This document shows positions 23,233-63,841 of a DNA stretch of 64,000 nt, piece after piece. Made by a program: the position numbers and the translations under genes. The stretch's first letter is position 1; every line of letters begins with the position of its first letter. Below the pieces are notes generated by a model that saw nothing but the letters and a program-made list of their open reading frames with translations, did no database searches and was not told the origin of the DNA. Origin of the DNA: Candidatus Babelota bacterium (GTDB taxonomy: Bacteria; Babelota; Babeliae; Babelales; Vermiphilaceae); assembly GCA_049325595.1 (NCBI GenBank), contig JBMOLF010000010.1:220113-284112 (forward strand), written 5' to 3'.

Positions 23233-23757
23233 TTATTTAAAAATATTGTCTATTATTTGAGTAACATCAACCGGTTTATTTCCAATGATTTCTTTTTCAC
23301 CAATATTGTTGGTTAAAGGAATTCCTGATTCTGTTTCTCCTGCTACACCCGCTGCTTTACCTATTTGAGGAACTACCCGTTCGCCATCAAATTTTACCAG
23401 TATCCTTTTTTCAATACGTTGTGCTGGAAACCGAATGGTCAAATTTTTCTCTTTTTTGTTTCCTAAATAGCTTAAAAGAAGAACAATATCAAATCTCTTA
23501 TTGTTAATGTTGGCTATGCGCAATTTTCCTTTTGGTTCAATAGTGTATTCGTAATCAGTTAATATTTTTTTATGTTCATCTGTTTCTCCGTATGCACGGT
23601 AAACCTGTATAGTAATTGGCGCCTTGCTTTTATTACTGAGCTCGAATTGCCATTGATCATATGGTTTACTTGCTTTAGGACCTTGCTCTATTTTGTATTG
23701 GCATTGAATAGCTACAGTGCTAAATAACAATATAATAAAAATAGTAAGATTTTTCAT
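23233..23757 (-). CDS. Secreted hypothetical protein, paralog A of tandem triplet
   Basis: Signal-peptide-like N-terminus; WQFELSNKS and TESGIPLTNN motifs shared with both neighbours. Confidence 0.8.
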   Translation of the reverse strand: MKNLTIFIILLFSTVAIQCQYKIEQGPKASKPYDQWQFELSNKSKAPITIQVYRAYGETDEHKKILTDYEYTIEPKGKLRIANINNKRFDIVLLLSYLGNKKEKNLTIRFPAQRIEKRILVKFDGERVVPQIGKAAGVAGETESGIPLTNNIGEKEIIGNKPVDVTQIIDNIFK

Positions 23758-23788
23758 AGTATGCTCACTTTTTATAGATTTTTACTCA

Positions 23789-24358
23789 TCAAACTTCACC
23801 ATAAACATCATCCACATCAACATCATCCCATAAGGTTCGTTCTATCTGAGGTTCAGGATTACCGGTGATTTCACCGTCAGTTATATTATTTAATAATGGA
23901 ATACCTGATTCAGTTGCTTGCCACCCTTGTTTAAAAAGACTTGTATGTCCGGCCTGCGGTCTAATAATCGAATTTTCATAAGTAATAAAAATATTTTTAT
24001 CTGGAGCAAATGTGTAAGTTCTAGAGCCGATAGAAGGTGTTCTTATATCAAGAGATATATTTGAAAGGTAAGGCAAAACAGCTCTAAATTTTGGTGCATT
24101 AAACAATTTCAATGAGAATGTTTTTGCCGGCAATACCGCCATAGTTATCGGCTGATCATTATGCTTTACTATTATATGAAGTTTTTCTTTGCTACGATTT
24201 ACCAATTCAAAGTTCCATTTTTTCAAAGGTGCAGTTGCTCGTGGGGTTTCTTCGGTGTCGGTAACTATTGACTGAGGGTCAACTGGTGATTTGAATTTAG
24301 TGTCTTGTGGGTGACAATTTATCCCCAATAAAATAATAGGTACTAATATGTATTTCAT
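23789..24358 (-). CDS. Secreted hypothetical protein, paralog B of tandem triplet
   Basis: Start MKYILVP after GGAG; WNFELVNRS and TESGIPLLNN motifs. Confidence 0.8.
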   Translation of the reverse strand: MKYILVPIILLGINCHPQDTKFKSPVDPQSIVTDTEETPRATAPLKKWNFELVNRSKEKLHIIVKHNDQPITMAVLPAKTFSLKLFNAPKFRAVLPYLSNISLDIRTPSIGSRTYTFAPDKNIFITYENSIIRPQAGHTSLFKQGWQATESGIPLLNNITDGEITGNPEPQIERTLWDDVDVDDVYGEV

Positions 24359-24374
24359 AAAAAATGACTCCATT

Positions 24375-24905
24375 TTAATCAACTATAATTATGTCACCCT
24401 GAGTAACGTTATTATCAAGAGGTAATCCCGATTTAGTTGTTTTTTTCATTTTTTGTAATGGATTTACAAAACCTTCTTGGGGATGAACATCGCCATCTTC
24501 GTAACTTAGAAAAATATTTTTACCACGAGTAAATCGGCGCTCTATTTTTTTTGTTCCATCGTCTTCTTGGGTTTGAATAATCAAATCAATATTAGTAGTT
24601 TGCGGAAGAACGGCTCTAATTTTGGGTGTTTGTGTTGGTAAAAATTTGCCCGTTAAGATTTTATCTAAAATAGTGAACATACCTATTTTAACGATCACTC
24701 GAATTTCTCTATTACTTCGATTTGCTAACTCAAAATTCCATTTATCATAGGGTTTTGTTGCAAAAAAGCCTGTTTCTATTTTATCGTCGTCGAGCAAGGC
24801 TTTATAATCACCTGGTCCATAATTTAGAACTTCTGTTGAAAATGAATTTGCTGCAATTAAAACTGTTATTATAAAAAAATTAAAAAATAATTTAAATTTA
24901 GTCAT
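24375..24905 (-). CDS. Secreted hypothetical protein, paralog C of tandem triplet
   Basis: AAGGAG RBS, signal peptide; WNFELANRS and TKSGLPLDNN motifs. Confidence 0.8.
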   Translation of the reverse strand: MTKFKLFFNFFIITVLIAANSFSTEVLNYGPGDYKALLDDDKIETGFFATKPYDKWNFELANRSNREIRVIVKIGMFTILDKILTGKFLPTQTPKIRAVLPQTTNIDLIIQTQEDDGTKKIERRFTRGKNIFLSYEDGDVHPQEGFVNPLQKMKKTTKSGLPLDNNVTQGDIIIVD

Positions 24906-29712: not shown

Positions 29713-30417
29713 ATGAGCGAAACGCCACTTCAGTTATTTGTTAACCTTATTCAATTTGATCAATCTTTATTAAAAATTGAATCCAGCATATCAGTTCTTA
29801 ACAACCAGATCCAAGAAGCTGTTCATCAAAAAACTCAATTACAAAATCAACTTGAAGCATTAAAATCCCGTGCTCTTTTGCAAAGAAAAAAGGTAGATGC
29901 ACTAGAACTTGAAATGAAACATATTGATGAAAAAATTTCTCGTAAAAAAGAGCAACTTGATAATGTAATGGGACATCGTGAATATCTTTCATTGAAAGCC
30001 GAAATTGATAATTTTAAAAAGCAACAACATGAACTAGAAGATTCATTGATTAGTTCATGGAATGATCTTGAAAATGTTCAAAAAGAACTAGATAATACTA
30101 TCTTAAAAGTTCATGAACAACTTAATCTTATACAGCAAGAAGAACATAACAAAAAAGTTCGCATAGAAGAATTAGAAAAAGAATTTTCTTTGCTTGCGCA
30201 ACAGCGTGCTGAAAAAGAAAAAGGAATACCCGAAGAATGGCTTGAAAAATATACTGCTATGCGTGCAAAAATAGCAGATCCAGTAGTTCCTGTTGTTGAT
30301 AAAACATGCAGTGGGTGTGCATTTCTTATTTCTGACCAGGATATGTTGCAGCTGCGACATAATAAATTGGTACAATGTAAAAGTTGTTTTAGATTATTGT
30401 ATATGACACCACATTAA
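29713..30417 (+). CDS. Coiled-coil C4-type zinc-ribbon protein (DUF164/CdsZ-like)
   Basis: Long coiled coil, then CSGC...CKSCFRLLY; adjacent to RNase H as often seen. Confidence 0.88.
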   Translation: MSETPLQLFVNLIQFDQSLLKIESSISVLNNQIQEAVHQKTQLQNQLEALKSRALLQRKKVDALELEMKHIDEKISRKKEQLDNVMGHREYLSLKAEIDNFKKQQHELEDSLISSWNDLENVQKELDNTILKVHEQLNLIQQEEHNKKVRIEELEKEFSLLAQQRAEKEKGIPEEWLEKYTAMRAKIADPVVPVVDKTCSGCAFLISDQDMLQLRHNKLVQCKSCFRLLYMTPH

Positions 30418-30969: not shown

Positions 30970-32113
30970 ATTTTTTTTAGGTTTAATAATCCTATTTTTT
31001 AGTATAAACAATAGTTTTGCTCAAGAAGAACTAGTTACTTTAAAAAAGAATTATAATGTTCGCATTTTACTTGCAGAATCTCCATCGGATCAAACGCACT
31101 GGACCCTAGAAACAGATCAAGGAGTTGTCTTTGTTGATCCATCAAATCCTAACAATAAATTAAAATATGCTGCTAACAATCTAACGATTACTTATCAAAA
31201 GGGATATTGGCATATAAATAATAAAAAATTTAATACAAATCGCGTCTTAATAATTCCCTGTAAAGATTATTTAACCTTTAATATCAATCAATATAAAGGG
31301 GCCATTCTTTTAGATAGCCGGAATGATAAAACATATCTAATTAATATTCTTGATCTAGAAGATTATGTATACTGCGTATTGAAAACTGAAAGTTGGCCGG
31401 GGTGGCCCTTAGAAGTGAATAAGGTATTTGCGATCGCATGCCGAACATATGCTATCCATATGATAACACACAATAATAAAAAAAATTCATATCATTTAAA
31501 AAATAGCAATCTTCACCAAACCTATAAAGGCATGCATACTCGAGATGATTTAAAACTTGCAGTAGAACAAACTAAGGGATTATTTTTAGCTCATAATAAC
31601 AAGCCAATTATAGCAATGTTTGATATTTGCTGTGGTGGCGTGATTCCGTCTTGCATTGATGGCTTTGATTTTGTTAAAGCTCCCTATCTTGCTCGTGACT
31701 ATGCATGTACACATTGCAAACGATGTAAAGTATTTAATTGGTCTGCTGAATATTCCCTTGATCAGTTAGAGAAAATTTTGCAGCAAGAGATTAATTCTTT
31801 AAAAAAATTAAAGACTATAAAGATTAATAAAAAGGATAAGGCAATGTTAACTAAAGAAGTAATGGTTGTAGGTTCTTCTGGTTGGCACGCATTGCCGATC
31901 AAAAAAATATATTCATTACTTAAAGATAAAATTAAAAGTTTTTGTTTTTCGGTAACAACACAAGGTAAGCAGATTGTTTTTACCGGTAAAGGTTTTGGGC
32001 ATCATTTAGGAATTTGCCAATGGGGTGCACGCGAAATGGTTCGTGATGGATGGAAATTTGAGCAGGTATTAGAATTTTATTATCCAGGTACCCGCTTTAT
32101 GAAGCTCATTTGA
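30953..32113 (+). CDS. SpoIID/LytB domain peptidoglycan lytic transglycosylase
   Basis: INILDLEDYVYCVLKTE, AIACRTYA, HQTYKG, GKGFGHHLGICQWGA, LEFYYPG; signal peptide. Confidence 0.93.
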   Translation: MILTGKFFLGLIILFFSINNSFAQEELVTLKKNYNVRILLAESPSDQTHWTLETDQGVVFVDPSNPNNKLKYAANNLTITYQKGYWHINNKKFNTNRVLIIPCKDYLTFNINQYKGAILLDSRNDKTYLINILDLEDYVYCVLKTESWPGWPLEVNKVFAIACRTYAIHMITHNNKKNSYHLKNSNLHQTYKGMHTRDDLKLAVEQTKGLFLAHNNKPIIAMFDICCGGVIPSCIDGFDFVKAPYLARDYACTHCKRCKVFNWSAEYSLDQLEKILQQEINSLKKLKTIKINKKDKAMLTKEVMVVGSSGWHALPIKKIYSLLKDKIKSFCFSVTTQGKQIVFTGKGFGHHLGICQWGAREMVRDGWKFEQVLEFYYPGTRFMKLI

Positions 32114-32123
32114 AAGGTAAATA

Positions 32124-32507
32124 ATGATTACCAAATTAACTCATCTTATGCTTTTAGTTCATAATCAAAACGATGCACTAAAGTTTTATACCGAACAACT
32201 TAATTTTAAAATTCATCCTGATGCACAATTTGGTCCAGAGCGTTGGCTTACCATTTGCGCTCATAATCAGTCTGATTTTGAAATTGCACTTATGCATGCT
32301 AATGATCAAGAAAAAGATTTGGTTGGTCGTCAGGCAGGTTCAAAACCTTTTTTTGTTATAGAAACAGATAATTGCATCGAAGATTACAAGTTATTCCAAC
32401 TTCGGGGAATACACTTTTTAAGTGAGCCAAAGGAAGAGCTTTGGGGAACGAGTGCTTTATTTCAAGATTTATATGGCAACATAATTTTGTTAAATCAAAG
32501 CAAATGA
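32124..32507 (+). CDS. VOC/glyoxalase family protein
   Basis: ALKFYTEQL, ERWLTI, EPKEELWGTSALFQDLYGN. Confidence 0.9.
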   Translation: MITKLTHLMLLVHNQNDALKFYTEQLNFKIHPDAQFGPERWLTICAHNQSDFEIALMHANDQEKDLVGRQAGSKPFFVIETDNCIEDYKLFQLRGIHFLSEPKEELWGTSALFQDLYGNIILLNQSK

Positions 32508-32509
32508 TT

Positions 32510-33364
32510 TTAGTTATTGGTTCTTTGCTTTTTTAACACCTCTTGAGTAAACCTCATAGCGGGGATTGCAGATAAAAATACTATATTACGCCAAAAAATA
32601 TCTTTGAGTGTTGCAAGTCCTTTAATTCCTTGTTGTTTATAAATTTGATTAAAAGCTTTTAGAGCTGAGATATTATTTTTTTGTGCTTTTGTTTTAATTT
32701 TATCTACAGGGGTGCTTAAGGTTGCAGTGACTAAAGCTACTGGTATGCTACCCCCTAAAGAATATAAAGCAGGATTTTGAGTTGGCAAATTTACAAGCTG
32801 TGCAGCACGATCTGAAAATAAAAAACCTGCTGAAAACATTTCTCGTATTCCCGTTACGCTAACATTTCGATAAACATTGGAAAATTTACTACTGCGAATA
32901 GCACGCCAAAGAGTCGTTTTAAGATCTTGTTGTTTGAGTGTATAATAATCTGCGGGACATACAATAATAGCAGATGCTATGCCCGCCCCCATTACTGCAC
33001 TTACTTCTTCCAGCGCAGATAATTCATAAGATGATTTATGATAAATATATTTTTCGATTGTAACCTTAAGAGGTGTTTGAACCACGGTCCCCAGCGTTAA
33101 ACTTGCTGTAAATGGTATCACGCCTCGTCTCAATTCATAAGTGCTTTTCATCAAATTTCTAATAACAGTGTAGCGGTTATCTTTCAAGTAAATTGGTTGA
33201 TTACTGTAGCTTTTATTTTTAGCGGCATTAGGAAGTTGTGCGGCTAAACTACCAGCTATACCCATAATGCTTCCATCAATAATAGCAGAGTTGATTTCAT
33301 TGTGTTCTGATCCATAGATTACCGCTGTAAAACTAACTAAAATAAAAATAAAATGTTTATGCAT
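32510..33364 (-). CDS. Mitochondrial carrier (SLC25/MCF)-like protein with signal peptide
   Basis: Three-repeat architecture; signatures CPADYYTLKQQ and TPVDKIKTKAQ (Px[DE]xx[KR]x[KR]xQ-like), VYRNVSVTGIRE, IYKQQGIKGL. Confidence 0.8.
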   Translation of the reverse strand: MHKHFIFILVSFTAVIYGSEHNEINSAIIDGSIMGIAGSLAAQLPNAAKNKSYSNQPIYLKDNRYTVIRNLMKSTYELRRGVIPFTASLTLGTVVQTPLKVTIEKYIYHKSSYELSALEEVSAVMGAGIASAIIVCPADYYTLKQQDLKTTLWRAIRSSKFSNVYRNVSVTGIREMFSAGFLFSDRAAQLVNLPTQNPALYSLGGSIPVALVTATLSTPVDKIKTKAQKNNISALKAFNQIYKQQGIKGLATLKDIFWRNIVFLSAIPAMRFTQEVLKKQRTNN

Positions 33365-33378
33365 GATTTGTCTCTTGT

Positions 33379-34353
33379 TTATATAAGCTTAATCCAAGGC
33401 TCTAAATCATTAGGAATTTTTAAATTTAATTCTTTTAATGTTTTTTTATTGACTAATAAAATGTCTTTTGGTGCATGGGCTATGGCTATTTCATAGGGTT
33501 TTTTTTGATAGGTTAATATTTCAAAGGCGGCAATGGCAGCCTGCATGCCATTAGTTTCATAATCTATTCCATACGATGCAATAATGCCTGGAAATGAAAT
33601 TAATGCATTGTCACATACCCATATAGGTTTTTTTGTTTTGCTTGCTCGTTGCGTAATGGTTTGAATCATCGAAGATAGGGTATTGTCTGTTGGTATAAAT
33701 AAAACATCTGCATTATGTAAAGCATTATCAATAGCGGCATACAATGTTGAATCTGCGTCAAAAACAATTTCAAGTGGATTGAGTCCTGCAGCAAGCATAG
33801 CATCGATTAACTTTTTAGAAATCATTCTAGAATTTTGTTCAACAGCGGTATACATAATAGCAACTGTTTTTACTTGCGGCATTAACTGCTTAAGATAATT
33901 AATGTGATAGCTCGGATCGGTCATATCTGAGCTGCCGGTAATATTGGTTTGGTTATAAGCAAGCCCTAATTCATGTGGATCTGATACAGCTGCTACAATA
34001 ATAGGTTTTTCTTTTTCAAATTCGGCAATTGCTTGAGCTGCAGGTGTTCCCAATGCACATATGAGATTGACTGTTTGATTTTCATGAAAGTTTTTAGCTA
34101 TAGTTTGAATTTGTGAATAAGATCCATAGGCATTGAAATGGACAAAGTCAACTGAGGTTCCAAGTCTTTCTGTTAGTGTTTTGATAAATCCTTCACGGGC
34201 AAGATCTAATGCTGGATGAGAAGTGGTTTGTATAATACCAATAGTATATTGTGGTTTGCCATCTCGCTTTTCTAAATTTATTTGAATAATAACAACACCA
34301 ACAATGGCAGTTATTACAAAGGCGATCAAAAATAGAGCAGATCGATTCTTCAT
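33379..34353 (-). CDS. ABC transporter substrate-binding protein (putative Trp/Tyr type, ABC_sub_bind family)
   Basis: IGIIQTTSHPALDLAREGF, GTPAAQA, AVSDP, NITGSSD, PTDN. Confidence 0.88.
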   Translation of the reverse strand: MKNRSALFLIAFVITAIVGVVIIQINLEKRDGKPQYTIGIIQTTSHPALDLAREGFIKTLTERLGTSVDFVHFNAYGSYSQIQTIAKNFHENQTVNLICALGTPAAQAIAEFEKEKPIIVAAVSDPHELGLAYNQTNITGSSDMTDPSYHINYLKQLMPQVKTVAIMYTAVEQNSRMISKKLIDAMLAAGLNPLEIVFDADSTLYAAIDNALHNADVLFIPTDNTLSSMIQTITQRASKTKKPIWVCDNALISFPGIIASYGIDYETNGMQAAIAAFEILTYQKKPYEIAIAHAPKDILLVNKKTLKELNLKIPNDLEPWIKLI

Positions 34354-34467
34354 TGCTAAATTCCTGTAAATTACAATCTAGGGTATACTCGCCTCAAATA
34401 TAATTTAGTTTATAATTTTTTACCAAGAAAAAATTCATAATATTTTTTTTAAGATGAAAGAGTTGCG

Positions 34468-34932
34468 ATGCCAAATTATAAAGGTCATTTATGTGGTGGA
34501 ATAGCTATATATGGCTTAACTTTATTTTTAATTTCGCATTATTTGTATGCCCCAAACTTTATAACCAGTTTGGAGTGGCTATTTTTTGCGTGTGCAGGTG
34601 CACTATTTCCTGATGTTGACACTAAAAGCAAAGGCCAGAAATGGTATTTTAGATTCCTATTTATTTTATTACTCTACGCATTATGTACCAATTATACTTA
34701 TGGTATGTGGTTTGCTATGTTTTGTATTGTGCTACCATTGACGGTTAAGCATCGAGGGATGTTTCATCGAATATGGTTTGTTGTTGGTATTCCAGTGGCA
34801 GCTGGGCTGATATCATGTGCGTATATACCCTGGTGCCGTACTGTTATCTGGTACGACACTTTATTTTTTATACTCGGTGCTCTGTCACACATATGGCTAG
34901 ATTTAGGATTAAAACGTATGTTTAGATGGTAA
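34468..34932 (+). CDS. Membrane metal-dependent hydrolase (YdjM-like)
   Basis: YKGH, FPDVD, HRGMFH, SHIWLD motifs with TM helices. Confidence 0.88.
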   Translation: MPNYKGHLCGGIAIYGLTLFLISHYLYAPNFITSLEWLFFACAGALFPDVDTKSKGQKWYFRFLFILLLYALCTNYTYGMWFAMFCIVLPLTVKHRGMFHRIWFVVGIPVAAGLISCAYIPWCRTVIWYDTLFFILGALSHIWLDLGLKRMFRW

Positions 34933-46151: not shown

Positions 46152-46748
46152 ATGACTTTTGGTACATACGTTAATACCCCAACTAAGCTGACACTTATAA
46201 GACTTCTTATTTCTCCTTTTGTTTTACCTCTTCTTATTTTTTATATATCACCACTCAATAATATTTATCTTAATAGTTTACTTGCACTACTTTTTATTTT
46301 AATAAGTCTTACCGATTTTTTTGATGGATATCTTGCTCGACGTTATAGGCAAGAAACGAAAATAGGCAAAAGCCTTGATCACATTGCGGATAAATTTTTG
46401 GTATATGCTACGTTAGTTGCATTATTGGCGGTAAAAAAAATATTTTTTTACTGGGTTATTGTGCTTATAGGACGTGAGTTTTTTGTATTGGGCTTACGTA
46501 TAATTGCTTTAGAGCATGGTTTAGAAGTGGCAGTATCTACCTTTGGTAAATTAAAAACAGCCACGCAAATGATTTGGCTAACTTTTTTATTAGTAGTTCC
46601 TAATCGTTATTTGATTATGAATGTTTCGCCATTTTGGGCAACAATTAATAGCCTGTTGATTACCTTAACTTTAGGTTTTTCTATTTATTCTGCCTATGCG
46701 TACGGTAGAGCATTTTATACCAAACTCAAGAATTATCGTGCGCTGTAA
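46152..46748 (+). CDS. pgsA: CDP-diacylglycerol--glycerol-3-phosphate 3-phosphatidyltransferase
   Basis: PTKLTLIRL, TDFFDGYLARR, LDHIADK, GREF, GKLKT. Confidence 0.92.
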   Translation: MTFGTYVNTPTKLTLIRLLISPFVLPLLIFYISPLNNIYLNSLLALLFILISLTDFFDGYLARRYRQETKIGKSLDHIADKFLVYATLVALLAVKKIFFYWVIVLIGREFFVLGLRIIALEHGLEVAVSTFGKLKTATQMIWLTFLLVVPNRYLIMNVSPFWATINSLLITLTLGFSIYSAYAYGRAFYTKLKNYRAL

Positions 46749-48592
46749 TGTCTAAGCTCTCCATAACACAGAAATTAATTATACTAAGCAGTGTTCTGGC
46801 TTTTAGTGGTGCGGCTATTGGTTTGTATTATTCGTATAATAACAAGGATAGTAAACATATGACCTTTAAAGAATTAGCTCATTATTTTTTTAAAATTGAA
46901 CAAGAACCCTCTCGTTTAGGTATGACGCGATTGCTTTCTCATTTATTAAAGGAAGCTACGCCACAAGAGGCGGCAGTAATTTGTAATATTTCTTTAGGAC
47001 AGTTACATGCACCTTATATTGGAACGCAATTTAATATTGCTGAAAAAAATATTATTAAAGTTATTGCTGATATTTTGCAACAGGACGAAAAAGAAATAAC
47101 TCTACAATCTAAAATGATTGGTGACCTTGGACTTATAATTGAAACGGGCAAATGGGACATAAAAAATGATCCTGAATTATTGGGAATCTATGATACTCTT
47201 GAAAAAATTGAAAAAATAAGTGGTATTGGGTCGCAAGAAGAAAAAAATAGAGCTCTTAAAAATTTAATAATATCGCTTGATCCACTTTCAGCAAAATATG
47301 TAATTAGAATTATTCTTGGCACTTTGCGCTTGGGTTTTTCTGATATGACGCTTATTGATGCCTTGTCGTGGATGGAAGCTGGCGACAAATCATTGCGACA
47401 TGTTATTGAACATGCTTACAATGTTTGCGCTGATATTGGGTATATTGCTCGATTGCTCAAACAAGAAGGCATTGAAGCAATAAAAAAAATGGAGCCTCAT
47501 GTCGGCACACCAATTCGCCCAGCAGCCGCAGAGCGACTGCCTACACCTCAAGCAATTTTTGAAAAATTAGGTACATGCATAGCACAGCCGAAGCTTGATG
47601 GGTTTCGCTTGCAAATTCATTATGATCATTCTCAAAATCCACCATTAATTAAATTTTATTCACGAAATTTAATTGATATGTCGCACATGTTTCCTGATCT
47701 TGCTCAGGCTATACAAAATTTACCTGTGCAAAATTTAATTGCTGAAGGAGAGGCAATAGTATACGATCAAAACGCGGGAACTTTTTTACCATTTCAAGAG
47801 ACGGTAAAGCGTAAACGAAAACATGGTATTGAAAAAGCAATTGAGGAATTGCCGTTACAAATATTTATGTTTGATATCTTATATCTGAATGGGAAATCTT
47901 TGCTTTCATTAACCCATGAAACGCGTCGTGCCCAATTGAAAGCTTTATTTGAAGCTGGTCCTTCATCAGCAATAAAAATTATCGATGAAAAAACAATTCA
48001 TAATGCAAAAGAACTTGAAGATTATTTTATGCAAAATATTTCTTCAGGTTTAGAAGGCTTGGTCGTTAAAAGACCTGATGCTATTTATCAACCAGGTAAA
48101 CGTAATTTTAATTGGATCAAATTAAAACGATCAGAAGAAGGTCATTTAGAAGATACTATCGATTGCGTTATTCTTGGATATTATGCCGGCTCAGGTAAAC
48201 GGGCATCATTTGGCATAGGCGCATTTCTTGTTGGTGTTTATAATCCTGCGCACGATTGTTTTGAAACCGTTGCCAAAATTGGTACCGGGTTAAAAGATAT
48301 TGATTGGATTGAGCTCAAGGCAAAGTGTGACGCAATAACTGTGCACGAAAAACCAAAAAATGTACATTGTGCACCAGAACTTTATCCTGATGTATGGGTT
48401 AATCCTGAATTAGTGTGTGTAATACGTGCTGATGAAATTACTATATCGCCTCTTCACACAGCAGGCAAAACTGAACACCATTTAGGATATGCTTTGCGAT
48501 TTCCTCGATTTATAAGTTATCGCACTGATAAAGGTGCTCAAGAGGCAACCACATCAGAAGAAGTTGCTCATCTTTACCAAGATCAATTTTAA
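46748..48592 (+). CDS. ATP-dependent DNA ligase (LigB/archaeal-like, with DNA-binding, adenylation and OB domains)
   Basis: PKLDGFRLQIH, YSRN, EGEA, FDILY, EGLVVK, WIKLK, LRFPRF; alternative start MTFKEL at 46859. Confidence 0.95.
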   Translation: MSKLSITQKLIILSSVLAFSGAAIGLYYSYNNKDSKHMTFKELAHYFFKIEQEPSRLGMTRLLSHLLKEATPQEAAVICNISLGQLHAPYIGTQFNIAEKNIIKVIADILQQDEKEITLQSKMIGDLGLIIETGKWDIKNDPELLGIYDTLEKIEKISGIGSQEEKNRALKNLIISLDPLSAKYVIRIILGTLRLGFSDMTLIDALSWMEAGDKSLRHVIEHAYNVCADIGYIARLLKQEGIEAIKKMEPHVGTPIRPAAAERLPTPQAIFEKLGTCIAQPKLDGFRLQIHYDHSQNPPLIKFYSRNLIDMSHMFPDLAQAIQNLPVQNLIAEGEAIVYDQNAGTFLPFQETVKRKRKHGIEKAIEELPLQIFMFDILYLNGKSLLSLTHETRRAQLKALFEAGPSSAIKIIDEKTIHNAKELEDYFMQNISSGLEGLVVKRPDAIYQPGKRNFNWIKLKRSEEGHLEDTIDCVILGYYAGSGKRASFGIGAFLVGVYNPAHDCFETVAKIGTGLKDIDWIELKAKCDAITVHEKPKNVHCAPELYPDVWVNPELVCVIRADEITISPLHTAGKTEHHLGYALRFPRFISYRTDKGAQEATTSEEVAHLYQDQF

Positions 48593-54878: not shown

Positions 54879-55343
54879 TTAATGTTTACCTTTATAGATG
54901 TTTTCTAGTTGTTCAGATGTTAGCTGAGGTCCATAGCTTTTATACTTTTCATTATATATTCTAACTATGGTTTCCATAACTTCTTTTTTTTCTGCTGTAT
55001 GGTGTAATAACTGAGGAGTAGGAGCAATCTCTTTTTGTTCTTGGCGTAATAGTTTTAATGATTCTTCTGAACGTTGTAATGTTTCGACGGTTGTCGGTGT
55101 ATTAGCATTGTTAGCAAAATAATCGTCAAGTTTGGTAATAATTTGTCCTAAATATTCCGTTTTGAGTTCTTTCGGAATTACGTTATCAAAATATTCACTA
55201 TCTTTAGTGAATATACTATCAAAAGTATTAATTGCTGCGCGATCATCCACCTCTGTTGACAACCTTGTTTTTTTAACTGATTGTTGTTCCATAGTGAAGC
55301 AGCAAGATGCGCTCATTGCAACAAGTAGTAATATTTTATTCAT
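54879..55343 (-). CDS. Secreted hypothetical protein (signal peptide + ME)
   Basis: MNKILLLVAMSASCCFT-MEQQ; weak similarity to the neighbouring 55379 ORF. Confidence 0.75.
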   Translation of the reverse strand: MNKILLLVAMSASCCFTMEQQSVKKTRLSTEVDDRAAINTFDSIFTKDSEYFDNVIPKELKTEYLGQIITKLDDYFANNANTPTTVETLQRSEESLKLLRQEQKEIAPTPQLLHHTAEKKEVMETIVRIYNEKYKSYGPQLTSEQLENIYKGKH

Positions 55344-55378
55344 AGTTGGTCTCTATAAAATATTAATTATGATTAATC

Positions 55379-55936
55379 TTATTTTTTTAAATTAAGCAAT
55401 CGATCATATTCTATAATTAACTTTTTTTGGAGTTCTTCGATAGTTAAGTCAGGAGTAAGTGGAGAACTGTTATATTCTTTACAATAATTCTCATATTCAC
55501 GATTAAAAACTTTATGTGTTTCAGCTGTTTCGGTTATAAGTTTACATTCTCTTGCGTGAGAATCCTCTTTATTTTGAGTTCCTTTTTGCTGTAATTTATG
55601 TCTTAAAAGAGTTCGATTGGTTTCAATTACAGTAGCCTGAACTGTCGTATTGATAATTTTTGGCTTTTCTTTGCTAGTTAATTGCTGTTGATTAACATTT
55701 TTGTTATTGATTAATTGATCTAATGTGGTAGTTATTTTTGTTAAAGGCACATTTTGTTTTGTGTATAAATCAACTAATTGTTTAATTTTGGCCTTGTTTG
55801 GATGAGTATTTTGCGGATCAACACTTATCTGGATTGCTTTTTCTAGAGTATTTATTTCTTGATCAATTTTTTCCATTCCCTGAATTAGTGTAAAAGTACT
55901 AATAAAAATTAATAAACTTAGTTTTTTTATTTCCAT
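55379..55936 (-). CDS. Secreted hypothetical protein (signal peptide + ME)
   Basis: GAGG RBS, MEIKKLSLLIFISTFTLIQG-MEKI. Confidence 0.75.
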   Translation of the reverse strand: MEIKKLSLLIFISTFTLIQGMEKIDQEINTLEKAIQISVDPQNTHPNKAKIKQLVDLYTKQNVPLTKITTTLDQLINNKNVNQQQLTSKEKPKIINTTVQATVIETNRTLLRHKLQQKGTQNKEDSHARECKLITETAETHKVFNREYENYCKEYNSSPLTPDLTIEELQKKLIIEYDRLLNLKK

Positions 55937-55997
55937 TTGCAACCTCAATAGTAAATAATGCCTTTCATTCAACTATTTTCACTTTAACACAAAAAAT

Positions 55998-56576
55998 TCA
56001 AATAGCAAGGTCAGGGAAAGATTGAAACAAGTTGTTATTGTTGTTTTCTAATTGAAATTTCGCTACGACGTAATTTTTAGCTGCTATATCTATGTTTGCT
56101 TGTTTTCTTGTTAAATCAGTAGTGTAGTTTATTAGGTTAGCCCAGGTTGGACTGCCAGGTTTTTCATTGCTAATTAGTAGATTAGCTTGGTTTTTAATTT
56201 GTTCTAAGGCAGACCATGCATGGGTAATGGTACCTATGGTAATGTTATCCAATATCTGAAATTGCTGTGTTACTCTATGATTTAAATAAGTTTCCTCTTC
56301 AAAACAGATTTTAGCTATTTCAGCATTAAGAAATGCCGTATATAAATCGGCTTCATGTTTTTTTAACGATAACAGCGTCAATGTATACATAGGAAATTTA
56401 TGAGCAATATCAGTAAATAGAGTGGTTACTTCTTTTACTGCATCATGCATGGCATCTATTTGTTGCAAATCTTGATCAATTTTTTTAATGATCTGTTCTT
56501 GATGCGATGCTGCTCTATGCTCCATTGGTAGTGCGGTGCTCAAATAACTTAATAATAAAATAAGAATAACTAACAT
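55998..56576 (-). CDS. Secreted helical hypothetical protein (signal peptide + ME)
   Basis: GGAGG RBS, MLVILILLLSYLSTALP-MEHR. Confidence 0.75.
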   Translation of the reverse strand: MLVILILLLSYLSTALPMEHRAASHQEQIIKKIDQDLQQIDAMHDAVKEVTTLFTDIAHKFPMYTLTLLSLKKHEADLYTAFLNAEIAKICFEEETYLNHRVTQQFQILDNITIGTITHAWSALEQIKNQANLLISNEKPGSPTWANLINYTTDLTRKQANIDIAAKNYVVAKFQLENNNNNLFQSFPDLAI

Positions 56577-62317: not shown

Positions 62318-62395
62318 GGGGCTGTAGCTCAGTTTGGTTAGAGCGTCCGCCTGTCACGCGGAAGGTCGAGAGTTCGAGCCTCTTCAGCCCCGCCA
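62318..62395 (+). tRNA. tRNA-Asp(GTC)
   Basis: GGGGCTG/CAGCCCC acceptor stem, loop CTGTCAC, G discriminator, CCA. Confidence 0.97.
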
Positions 62396-63841
62396 TTGTT
62401 GACGATCAGAACAATTTACGATCAAGTCAAATGGCTTTACAACGTCCCACAGCAGTTTTTCACCTTCTATCCTCAAGTTCGAAAGTAACAGTTTAATTAA
62501 CTGGCGCTTTTCCTCAACTTCAGAACTCAAAAATAATTCATACGTGCGATTAGTTAGATCTAGTACTTGTTTTGCGGTGGTATAGTAGTTATCATCTGCT
62601 TCTTGCAAGCGCTCTAAGCGAACATTAATACTCATAAGTTCTTGGCGTAGGCTTTGGTAAAATCTGTCATATTCGCTCTCAGTAATTCTCCCACGCAATT
62701 TATCAAGATATAAATTATCAAGCATTGTTGTGGTTGATTTTTGTTCTCTGGTGAGCTTGTCGAACTCTTTATTATAAAATTCAATTTTTTCTTGATGTAA
62801 TTCATCTAATGATTGTGCAATTTGTGCGCACACATCTTTTGGCATCTGTAAGCTTTTAAAAACGGTGCTGAGTTGTTCTGTAATATATTCTTCTCTAAAC
62901 CATTTTGCACCGTGTTTACCTTTGTATTGGGTGCAATGATAATACACAAAGCCTTTATGCTTTTCTGGTGTGATTGCGCAATCACATTCTCCACAGCGGA
63001 TCAGACCGCGATAGATGTAGGGTATGCCCGCGTATTTGAATGGCTTCTTTTGAAAGCTGTCACGAACTTGTTTGACTTGGTCAAATAATGCTTTGCTGAT
63101 GAGTGGTGGATAACGATGGGGATATTCTTTATGTTTTACTACCATGGTTCCATGGTAAAAAGGATTGCTTAATATTTTTCCGAGCTGACCTTTAGGCCAA
63201 TCAATCCCAAAGTCTTCTTTTATTTTTTTACACAGTATTTCCATTGAGTAAGCACCTGTGGCATAGAGCTCAAATGCTTTCTTAAGAATATGTGCATTGT
63301 AATCATCTACAATAACATCAGTGCTACCATCAGCCTTTGTACTATTTTTATAGCCAAAGGGTGCAAGGGCAAGCCACTCACCTTTACGGAGCTTTTGCTC
63401 AATAGCGCGCTTTACGTTGTCACTAATAGCATCTGAATAATATTTGGCTAACCCAAGGCTAATGCTGAATTGGAATTTTTCTACCGCAGATATTTTGCTA
63501 TTGATCACTTGGCCATCACGATACAAAGTGTAACTCAATTTCATCATTTAATGCTTTTTCATACAAGATAGATACGCGTTTATCAAACACATTGCGTGAT
63601 AAACGGTCAACCTTATCACAGCATATTATTATCTTTTCTTCCTGGTTTAATATAAGGTCAATGATTGCATCAAACTCAGAGCGGTCTTTGGTGTATGCGC
63701 TTTCATCAAAGCTATAAACTTGAGCTATCTCTAATTGTTTGTTTTGGCAATATTTTTCAAGGCGTGATACTTGTGCGGGTAATGAGTTACCTGCTTCTCG
63801 TTGTTCTTCTGTGCTTACGCGAGCTATGAGAATTGCTTCAT
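62384..63841 (-). pseudogene. Large serine recombinase (resolvase + recombinase + zinc ribbon + coiled coil), disrupted by two frameshifts
   Basis: ATG at 63841 with AGGA RBS; a shifted frame gives AILIARVSTEEQ...DESA...DKVDRLSR...HFVS*; the C-terminal ORF has APFGY, ILSNPFYHG, CGEC, YYHC; indels near 63838 and 63518. Confidence 0.88.

Follow-up and report, generated by a model that had tools for sequence, protein, structure and literature searches.

A divergent mitochondrial carrier-type protein with a signal-like N terminus, encoded by a Dependentiae bacterium, and the case for its residence in the bacterial inner membrane

Where does a mitochondrial carrier-type protein work when a bacterium that lives at the expense of protists encodes it: in the mitochondria of the host or in the membrane of the bacterium itself? 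This question is raised by a gene in a 64,000-nucleotide stretch of DNA, referred to here as the window (contig JBMOLF010000010.1, positions 220,113 to 284,112, assembly GCA_049325595.1). The source genome (G000; 1.29 Mb, 24 contigs, 95% complete) is that of a member of the Dependentiae (TM6) and thus of an obligate protist parasite. The open reading frame (ORF) at positions 32510..33364 on the minus strand starts with ATG and contains all of the peptide stretches that had led a first-pass annotation to propose a horizontally acquired, Sec-exported effector that drains or perturbs the metabolites of host mitochondria. The results described below indicate that the protein is a real, very divergent protein with the fold of SLC25 carriers, and that its signal-like N-terminal segment is a lineage-wide trait of Dependentiae carriers. 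The reading that we favor, with moderate confidence, is that the carrier enters the bacterial inner membrane through Sec, takes up the mitochondrial orientation there, and imports a host metabolite, possibly an amino acid-like one.

Evidence for family membership from the sequence of the protein alone was thin. The Pfam profile for mitochondrial carriers (PF00153, Mito_carr) gave 28.8 bits against a cutoff of 22.3, with an E value of 1e-6, and scored a single repeat, repeat 3 (residues 207 to 250). A six-frame Pfam search of the source genome yielded 22.8 bits for the same profile at the carrier gene. A phmmer search of the PDB sequences with the single carrier sequence retrieved no carrier, and its four matches were unrelated proteins with E values of at least 0.1. 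A profile of seven close homologues (alignment A1) retrieved only the yeast GTP/GDP carrier, at a marginal E value of 0.059. However, intermediate sequences and structure made the link to the family clear. An exhaustive phmmer search of 1.84 billion representatives yielded 62 matches at E values of 0.001 or lower, 3 of them at 1e-10 or lower, and PF00153 matched every one of the 67 sequences in the resulting alignment (A2). The closest named homologue was from "Candidatus Dependentiae bacterium Noda2021." In the seven homologues, which were 44 to 53% identical, the ORF was intact and 75 columns were invariant, including R174, E175, R259, Q146, and Q228.

The AlphaFold2 (AF2) model, built on alignment A2, which included canonical carriers, had a mean predicted local distance difference test score (pLDDT) of 90.8 and a predicted template modeling (TM) score of 0.85. 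Its six long helices and three short matrix helices followed the carrier pattern (residues 23-53, 67-78, 82-106, 117-148, 152-164, 168-190, 198-229, 234-250, and 253-283). In a Foldseek search of the PDB, all 13 matches at E values of 0.001 or lower were mitochondrial carriers, namely UCP1 (8g8w, 8hbv), ADP/ATP carriers (1okc, 4c9h, 6gci), and the oxoglutarate carrier (in 7w5z), with TM scores normalized to the query (TMq) of 0.57 to 0.74. The next match had an E value of 0.06 and a TM score of 0.20. Thus, the first-pass assignment to the SLC25 type, for which comparison with PF00153 and with known structures had been suggested as checks, was borne out both by a Pfam score above the cutoff and by a match to the carrier fold. 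The three repeats of approximately 90 residues that it had described were apparent as three domains in the AF2 model. However, hhalign comparisons among the repeat subalignments of the seven-member family were not significant (E values of 0.36 to 0.55), although repeats 2 and 3 aligned in the right register, and the threefold repeat was therefore seen in the model only and not by sequence within the family.

The protein thus shares with eukaryotic SLC25 carriers the six-helix, three-domain fold, the PF00153 match, a canonical third signature with its glutamine brace, and basic residues at contact points II and III. It differs from them in being encoded by a bacterium, in its N-terminal Sec-type signal-like segment, in its low identity to the solved chains (11 to 17%), in its degenerate first and second signatures and almost absent cytoplasmic network, and in its shorter length (approximately 265 residues without the signal).

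The first 20 or so residues lie outside the carrier fold, because in a structure search of the Atlas the alignments with eukaryotic carrier clusters (TM scores of 0.71 to 0.78) began at residue 17, 20, 22, or 23 and extended to residue 284. Residues 2 to 17 form a hydrophobic segment with a best 10-residue Kyte-Doolittle mean of 2.71. The uncharged core of 16 residues spans positions 4 to 19, with one lysine and two histidines ahead of it, and the motifs I-Y-G and then S-E-H follow. AF2 rendered residues 2 to 17 as an extra helix of low confidence (pLDDT 52 to 56) ahead of helix 1. The hydrophobic segment was kept in six of the seven close homologues, and the seventh has a later start. Genes for signal peptidase I and SecD are present in the source genome. 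The segment could equally well be an uncleaved signal anchor.

To place this feature in the phylum, carriers were collected from a sample of 201 genomes. PF00153 matched in 31 genomes and the A1 profile in 14, one of them additional, which gave 32 carrier-bearing genomes. A hidden Markov model (HMM) of alignment A2 run on loci L001 to L047 produced 48 ORF hits representing 33 distinct sequences, and 32 remained after a partial ORF of 223 residues (L006) was dropped. A hydrophobic stretch with a best 10-residue Kyte-Doolittle mean of at least 1.8 preceded helix 1 in each of these 32 distinct ORFs, which came from 32 genomes. An uncharged run of at least 10 residues was present in all but one of them (31/32), typically followed by acidic or polar residues. 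Among eukaryotic controls treated in the same way, the threshold was reached by 3 of 25 named carriers, all of them artefacts: in two the stretch was the start of helix 1, and in the third it lay in a misaligned pre-segment of 144 residues. In alignment A2, 31 of the 67 sequences had a hydrophobic stretch. A scan of species-representative genomes found the stretch in none of the four Legionellaceae carriers and not in the one Thiotrichales metagenome-assembled genome carrier of the Dependentiae-related type (best means of -1.12 to 1.17). The signal-like segment is therefore a lineage-wide trait of the Dependentiae carriers and may reflect one ancient gain. The bacterial signal of the first-pass annotation was thus supported, as a Sec-type, signal-like segment, by hydropathy, by AF2, by the Atlas alignments, and by its presence throughout the Dependentiae carriers. 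The partial ORF set aside above (L006, positions 2229-2900 on the plus strand, in genome G197) lies directly downstream of a full-length carrier gene, has a hydrophobic, signal-like start of its own, and may represent either a fragment or a copy that arose by tandem duplication.

Hydrophobic helices that enter Sec are normally released into the inner membrane of the bacterium itself, and a Sec signal with six helices behind it is the usual arrangement for insertion there. In the favored reading, the signal-like segment would engage the signal recognition particle and Sec and, whether cleaved or retained, would make helix 1 begin on the periplasmic side. With six helices across the inner membrane, both termini would then lie outside, and the three positively charged "matrix" loops would face the bacterial cytoplasm; by topology rules, this would be the same orientation as in the mitochondrion. 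So placed, the carrier would take a host-derived metabolite from the periplasm into the bacterial cell. The distribution of lysine and arginine residues, 22 on the matrix-side loops versus 4 on the opposite side (15 to 22 versus 3 to 7 in the seven family members), is consistent with this topology but does not discriminate, because eukaryotic carriers have the same bias.

The secretion systems of the organism bear on the same question. VirB4 (PF03135) and VirD4 (PF02534), FHIPEP, and VipB, which mark type IV, type III, and type VI secretion, respectively, were not found in the 95%-complete source genome, which has two secretins. This marker set agrees with the Babela paper, in which a type II system was the only secretion system detected (PMC4378268; here and below, all papers except PMC8812299 are cited from the portions of their text that were available).

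Several observations weigh against residence in the bacterial membrane. The six helices are weakly hydrophobic (mean Kyte-Doolittle value of 0.95), so retention by Sec is not guaranteed. Median helix hydropathies of Dependentiae and eukaryotic carriers were 0.81 and 0.87 (Mann-Whitney p of 0.49), and the idea that adaptation to Sec had made the helices more hydrophobic was rejected since there was no difference from eukaryotic carriers. The presence of a signal peptide does not discriminate either, because putative signal peptides are so common, being found on 44% of the coding sequences of Chromulinavorax (PMC6561590), and because Sec followed by type II secretion is the presumed route of effectors in Dependentiae. 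The cells of a cultured isolate of the same lineage, whose host is Vermamoeba, are ringed by altered host mitochondria (PMC8812299). The 32 Dependentiae ORFs are kin rather than 32 independent events, and the gate motifs described below are so eroded that a normal transport cycle is uncertain. Furthermore, the adjacency of the carrier gene to a gene for a substrate-binding protein, also taken up below, was found only in the source genome and G107, which are of one genus, and in one operon of a genome from another genus, G109; for the other 29 of the 32 carrier-bearing genomes, neither the 1.5-kb flanks nor the coordinates showed it.

It is conceivable, though we consider it unlikely, that the protein is instead an effector aimed at the host: exported by Sec, released by type II secretion or in outer-membrane vesicles, imported into host mitochondria through TOM and TIM22, and altering metabolite fluxes there. 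There is a precedent in LncP, a type IV-delivered protein that arrives in the inner membrane of mitochondria (PMC3252375). Secretion of effectors with signal peptides is presumed for Dependentiae, vesicles have been seen (PMC4378268, PMC6561590), and relatives replicate while wrapped by host mitochondria (PMC6561590, PMC8812299). The weak hydrophobicity of the helices would also suit such a route. However, markers for type III, IV, and VI systems were not found in the source genome, and type II secretion handles folded, soluble periplasmic proteins. The authors of the LncP study argued that LncP has to evade YidC and SecYEG for its hand-over to the Dot/Icm system (PMC3252375), whereas the window protein has a Sec-type signal, and the Legionellaceae relatives are without one. 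The carrier gene occupies an operon-like position with uptake genes, and the positive-inside charge bias fits insertion in the bacterium. Delivery to host mitochondria, as the first-pass annotation had it, was thus not supported in view of the missing secretion markers, the Sec-type signal, and the uptake-gene setting.

Comparison with described systems leads in the same direction. LncP of Legionella pneumophila and Llo1924 of Legionella longbeachae are likewise bacterial genes for SLC25-fold proteins in intracellular bacteria of protists; the first-pass annotation had attributed LncP to L. longbeachae, in which the homologue is Llo1924 (PMC3252375). LncP, which transports ATP, is delivered by type IV secretion, is argued to bypass SecYEG and YidC, and depends on TIM22 for its assembly in host mitochondria (PMC3252375). 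In contrast, the genome that encodes the window protein lacks detectable type IV markers, the protein has the signal-like segment, and its contact point II is of the R-E type. All four of the Legionellaceae carriers related to the Dependentiae type are without a signal. Databases also list SLC25 members for a few intracellular bacteria (PMC5621508). For Babela massiliensis, a member of the same phylum, the available text gives mitochondrial carrier family transporters a one-line mention, among nutrient importers and with specificity unknown (Pagnier et al. 2015, PMC4378268). This listing of the same family as importers matches the reading favored here; in that text the mention comes without signal peptide, topology, distribution, operon context, or motif analysis, and the clade of the window protein is a far more divergent branch. 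The TLC/NTT nucleotide transporters (PF03219) would be functional analogues, inner-membrane carriers that tap host cytosolic metabolite pools, but they form an unrelated family with 12 helices and a known nucleotide substrate. In our literature searches, whose scope did not extend to many subscription papers and supplements, no account was found of the signal segment of the Dependentiae carriers, its conservation across the phylum, the contrast with Legionellaceae, the ABC (ATP-binding cassette) operon context, or the gate pattern.

The residues that form the gates of SLC25 carriers are partly conserved. The matrix signature on helix 5 (H5) reads P219-V-D-K-I-K224, and the base position on H3 is threonine, methionine, or leucine in the family. 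When the matrix network is read as interdomain pairs, two of the three salt bridges are possible and the third is lost on both sides, a pattern that recurs in other Dependentiae carriers and in the Legionellaceae relatives. The cytoplasmic motif [YF][DE]xx[KR] was absent from H2 and H4, and H6 had an acid and a base (E275, K278) in four of the seven family members. The erosion of the salt-bridge motifs that the first-pass annotation had noted was therefore real, with one of three matrix signatures canonical and the cytoplasmic motifs lost on H2 and H4. The missing cytoplasmic network bears on mechanism more than on membership, because some accepted SLC25 members are also without salt-bridge networks (PMC7611774). 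Ruprecht and Kunji state in their review that spontaneous opening of a weak network is possible and permits uniport (PMC7611774). The nearly absent cytoplasmic network might thus let the empty carrier return from the inward-open to the outward-open state, which would result in net import rather than strict exchange. The suggestion of a leaky or uniport mode in the first-pass annotation hence has a basis in print, but we favor net import into the bacterium over the draining of mitochondria.

Contact point II discriminates substrate classes (PMC7611774). R174, E175, and R259 were invariant in the seven-member family. In the contact point II column, R-[DE] was found in ornithine, basic amino acid, carnitine, S-adenosylmethionine (SAM), and glycine carriers, R-Q in citrate and succinate-fumarate carriers, and G-V in an SLC25A42-like carrier; the register of this comparison rests on an HMM alignment rather than a solved complex. 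Our best guess, from sequence, is that the substrate is amino acid-like or zwitterionic, and a nucleotide, as for LncP, seems less likely. One more specific candidate, a general role in SAM import, was rejected. The SAM synthetase gene metK (PF02773) was not found in the source genome, and in the phylum sample it was present in 15 of the 201 genomes and in none of the 32 with a carrier. However, approximately 154 genomes had neither metK nor a carrier, so the pattern is uninformative.

The same erosion invites the idea that the protein retains the carrier fold but no longer transports, having either another role in the bacterial membrane, such as the insertase- or scramblase-like functions described for SLC25 members of the outer membrane, or none, as a slowly decaying relic. 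One of three matrix signatures is canonical, at most one of three cytoplasmic motifs is recognizable, Pfam scores repeat 3 only, the clade of the window protein sits on a very long branch (1.51), and peculiar SLC25 members without networks exist (PMC7611774). However, the intact ORF in seven homologues with 44 to 53% identity and 75 invariant columns, together with invariance of the cavity residues R174, E175, and R259 and of the glutamine braces Q146 and Q228, speaks against this idea. In addition, of the three matrix salt-bridge pairs, two persist and one has lost both of its partners, which looks tuned rather than decayed. We regard a loss of transport as quite improbable.

The neighborhood of the carrier gene is consistent with a role in uptake. 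The adjacent gene upstream encodes a membrane-anchored ABC substrate-binding protein that scored 190 bits against NF041285, under the equivalog cutoff of 390, and is related to the TrpX tryptophan-binding proteins. It is probably cotranscribed with the carrier gene. Among the sequencing runs listed for positions 32100 to 34500 of the window, none was of RNA, and those of DNA were metagenomes. The second gene upstream of that for the binding protein encodes a PutP-like sodium/solute symporter, and G107 has the same order, SpoIID, carrier, binding protein, YdjM, symporter. In G109, a binding protein, a permease, and an ABC ATPase are followed, after a gap of 16 nt, by a carrier gene and then by the gene for CTP synthase; this carrier is 20% identical to that of the window. 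The presence of carriers in uptake operons of two diverged lineages supports a role in the bacterium's own nutrient uptake. A general linkage of binding protein and carrier was rejected, as the adjacency was limited to the source genome, G107, and the G109 operon.

A stronger claim would be that the carrier depends on the binding protein, i.e., that in the genus of this bacterium the ABC permease and ATPase have given way to the carrier, which is fed by an orphan TrpX-like protein, in the manner of the tripartite ATP-independent periplasmic (TRAP) transporters. Besides the 14 nt that separate the two genes, it is suggestive that the PF04392 gene next to the carrier is the only copy found in the source genome, and that a BPD_transp_2 permease was not found anywhere in that genome at 95% completeness. 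In the phylum sample as a whole, the genomes with PF04392 (77 of 201) and those with BPD_transp_2 (75 of 201) are nearly the same set, and the two genes are neighbors in them. G107 has three binding proteins; a permease comes after two of them, and the carrier comes after the remaining one. The binding protein is also well kept, at 71% identity between the source genome and G107 versus 44 to 47% for the carrier. However, the permease of a 95% complete genome in 24 contigs may be unassembled, the pairing is limited to one genus, and the position of the G109 carrier after a complete ABC operon suggests coexpression rather than replacement. A complex prediction with carrier residues 19 to 284 (A1) and binding protein residues 31 to 324 (A3) scored 0.00 in two runs without controls, which speaks neither for nor against binding. 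We know of no precedent for a binding-protein-dependent carrier of the SLC25 type, and we regard such dependence as very improbable. There is likewise only a slim chance that a phylum-wide, Sec-inserted SLC25 branch is combined, in the window's genus, with replacement of the permease and ATPase and cooperation with the orphan binding protein, a combination undescribed for the family. As a separate observation on the binding proteins, four genomes of family f11 in the phylum sample (G043, G095, G177, and G188) had at least 11 PF04392 matches each, compared with 1 to 4 in the other genomes that bear PF04392.

The carrier gene was not acquired recently. Its GC content (0.349) and GC content at third codon positions (GC3; 0.228) are the same as those of the neighboring genes, and recent horizontal transfer was rejected on this ground. 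In a tree with N termini kept, 35 Dependentiae-type rows were split from 24 eukaryotic rows with a Shimodaira-Hasegawa-like approximate likelihood ratio (SH-aLRT) support of 99, although the eukaryotic sample was drawn from hits to our own carrier profile and was not balanced. When the N termini were trimmed and 14 unlabelled environmental carriers were added, the groups interleaved and the label needed four changes; a single Dependentiae clade was not rejected (approximately unbiased test, p of 0.32). The window protein belonged to a clade of five on a long branch (1.51). Of the first-pass proposal of horizontal acquisition, an ancient event is plausible and a recent one is not, given the composition of the gene and the clustering of the Dependentiae carriers. 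The nearest outside row to the window clade was P0012, an environmental sequence of 304 residues that has no hydrophobic N terminus (SH-aLRT of 96 after trimming) and could point to a source or a sister. Two carrier loci (L083 and L084) bear the record title "uncultured Pseudomonadota bacterium," but their proteins are identical to those of two loci from a genome assigned to the phylum and family of the source genome, and the label in the title is probably wrong.

The window is ordinary chromosome, a ribosomal and housekeeping region with glycolysis genes, SecD, a tRNA synthetase, and others, and the features of the carrier locus are collected in the table. Elsewhere in the source genome there are two genes for TLC-type nucleotide transporters (PF03219), and this pair agrees with the energy-parasite lifestyle given for the phylum (PMC6561590). 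Further genes in the window are worth recording. An ORF at 46748-48592 (plus strand) encodes an ATP-dependent DNA ligase of 614 residues with N-terminal, adenylation, and C-terminal domains (PF04675, PF01068, PF04679) in what is a reduced bacterial genome; this three-domain layout is typical of eukaryotes, archaea, and large viruses. A large serine recombinase with Recombinase and Zn_ribbon_recom domains is encoded at 62384-63547 (minus strand), close to the end of the window, and may mark a mobile element or prophage remnant. Three successive same-strand ORFs of 154 to 197 residues with no Pfam match at E values of 1e-5 or lower lie at 23233-24905 (minus strand), and another such trio lies at 54879-56576 (minus strand). 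An ORF at 29713-30417 (plus strand) has a CT398-like coiled-coil hairpin domain (PF24481), from a family named after CT398.

Table. Features of the carrier locus, in window coordinates
Feature	Position	Strand	Description	Evidence
Carrier gene, mitochondrial carrier family (SLC25/PF00153)	32510..33364	minus	284 residues; stop codon included in the coordinates	ORF, Pfam, AF2 model, Foldseek
Signal-like segment, codons 1-18	33311..33364	minus	short basic start, uncharged run of 16 residues, then G-S-E; outside the carrier fold	
Carrier repeat 1 (residues 23-110: H1, matrix helix, H2)	33035..33298	minus	degenerate signature: proline off by one, N46 in place of the acid, base K49 kept	
Carrier repeat 2 (residues 115-196: H3, matrix helix, H4)	32777..33022	minus	P137-A-D139 kept, T142 at the base position; invariant R174-E175 on H4 at the expected contact point II	
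Carrier repeat 3 (residues 197-284: H5, matrix helix, H6)	32513..32776	minus	canonical P219-x-D221-x-x-K224 ... Q228; R259 at the expected contact point III; only repeat scored by Pfam	
TrpX-like ABC substrate-binding protein gene (PF04392), membrane-anchored	33379..34353	minus	upstream, 14 nt from the carrier gene	Pfam, 154.9 bits

SLC25 carriers are treated as a hallmark of eukaryotes, and the experimentally studied bacterial member that we met in the literature is an injected effector. If the favored reading is true, a whole bacterial phylum has fitted the SLC25 fold with a Sec signal and runs it in its own membrane in the mitochondrial orientation. Intracellular bacteria would then have two distinct ways of exploiting a eukaryotic transporter, the second being to draw on the host cytosol much as nucleotide translocases do, and carriers could evidently be assembled by SecYEG and YidC instead of TIM22. 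The finding also bears on claims that there are no known prokaryotic SLC25 homologues, as made in the available text of a recent preprint (bioRxiv 10.64898/2026.03.31.715626). The existence of a cultured isolate of the same lineage, with Vermamoeba as its host, makes the question of location directly testable. Furthermore, the Dependentiae carriers are a natural bacterial family with a nearly absent cytoplasmic network, which makes them useful for the model of uniport versus exchange.

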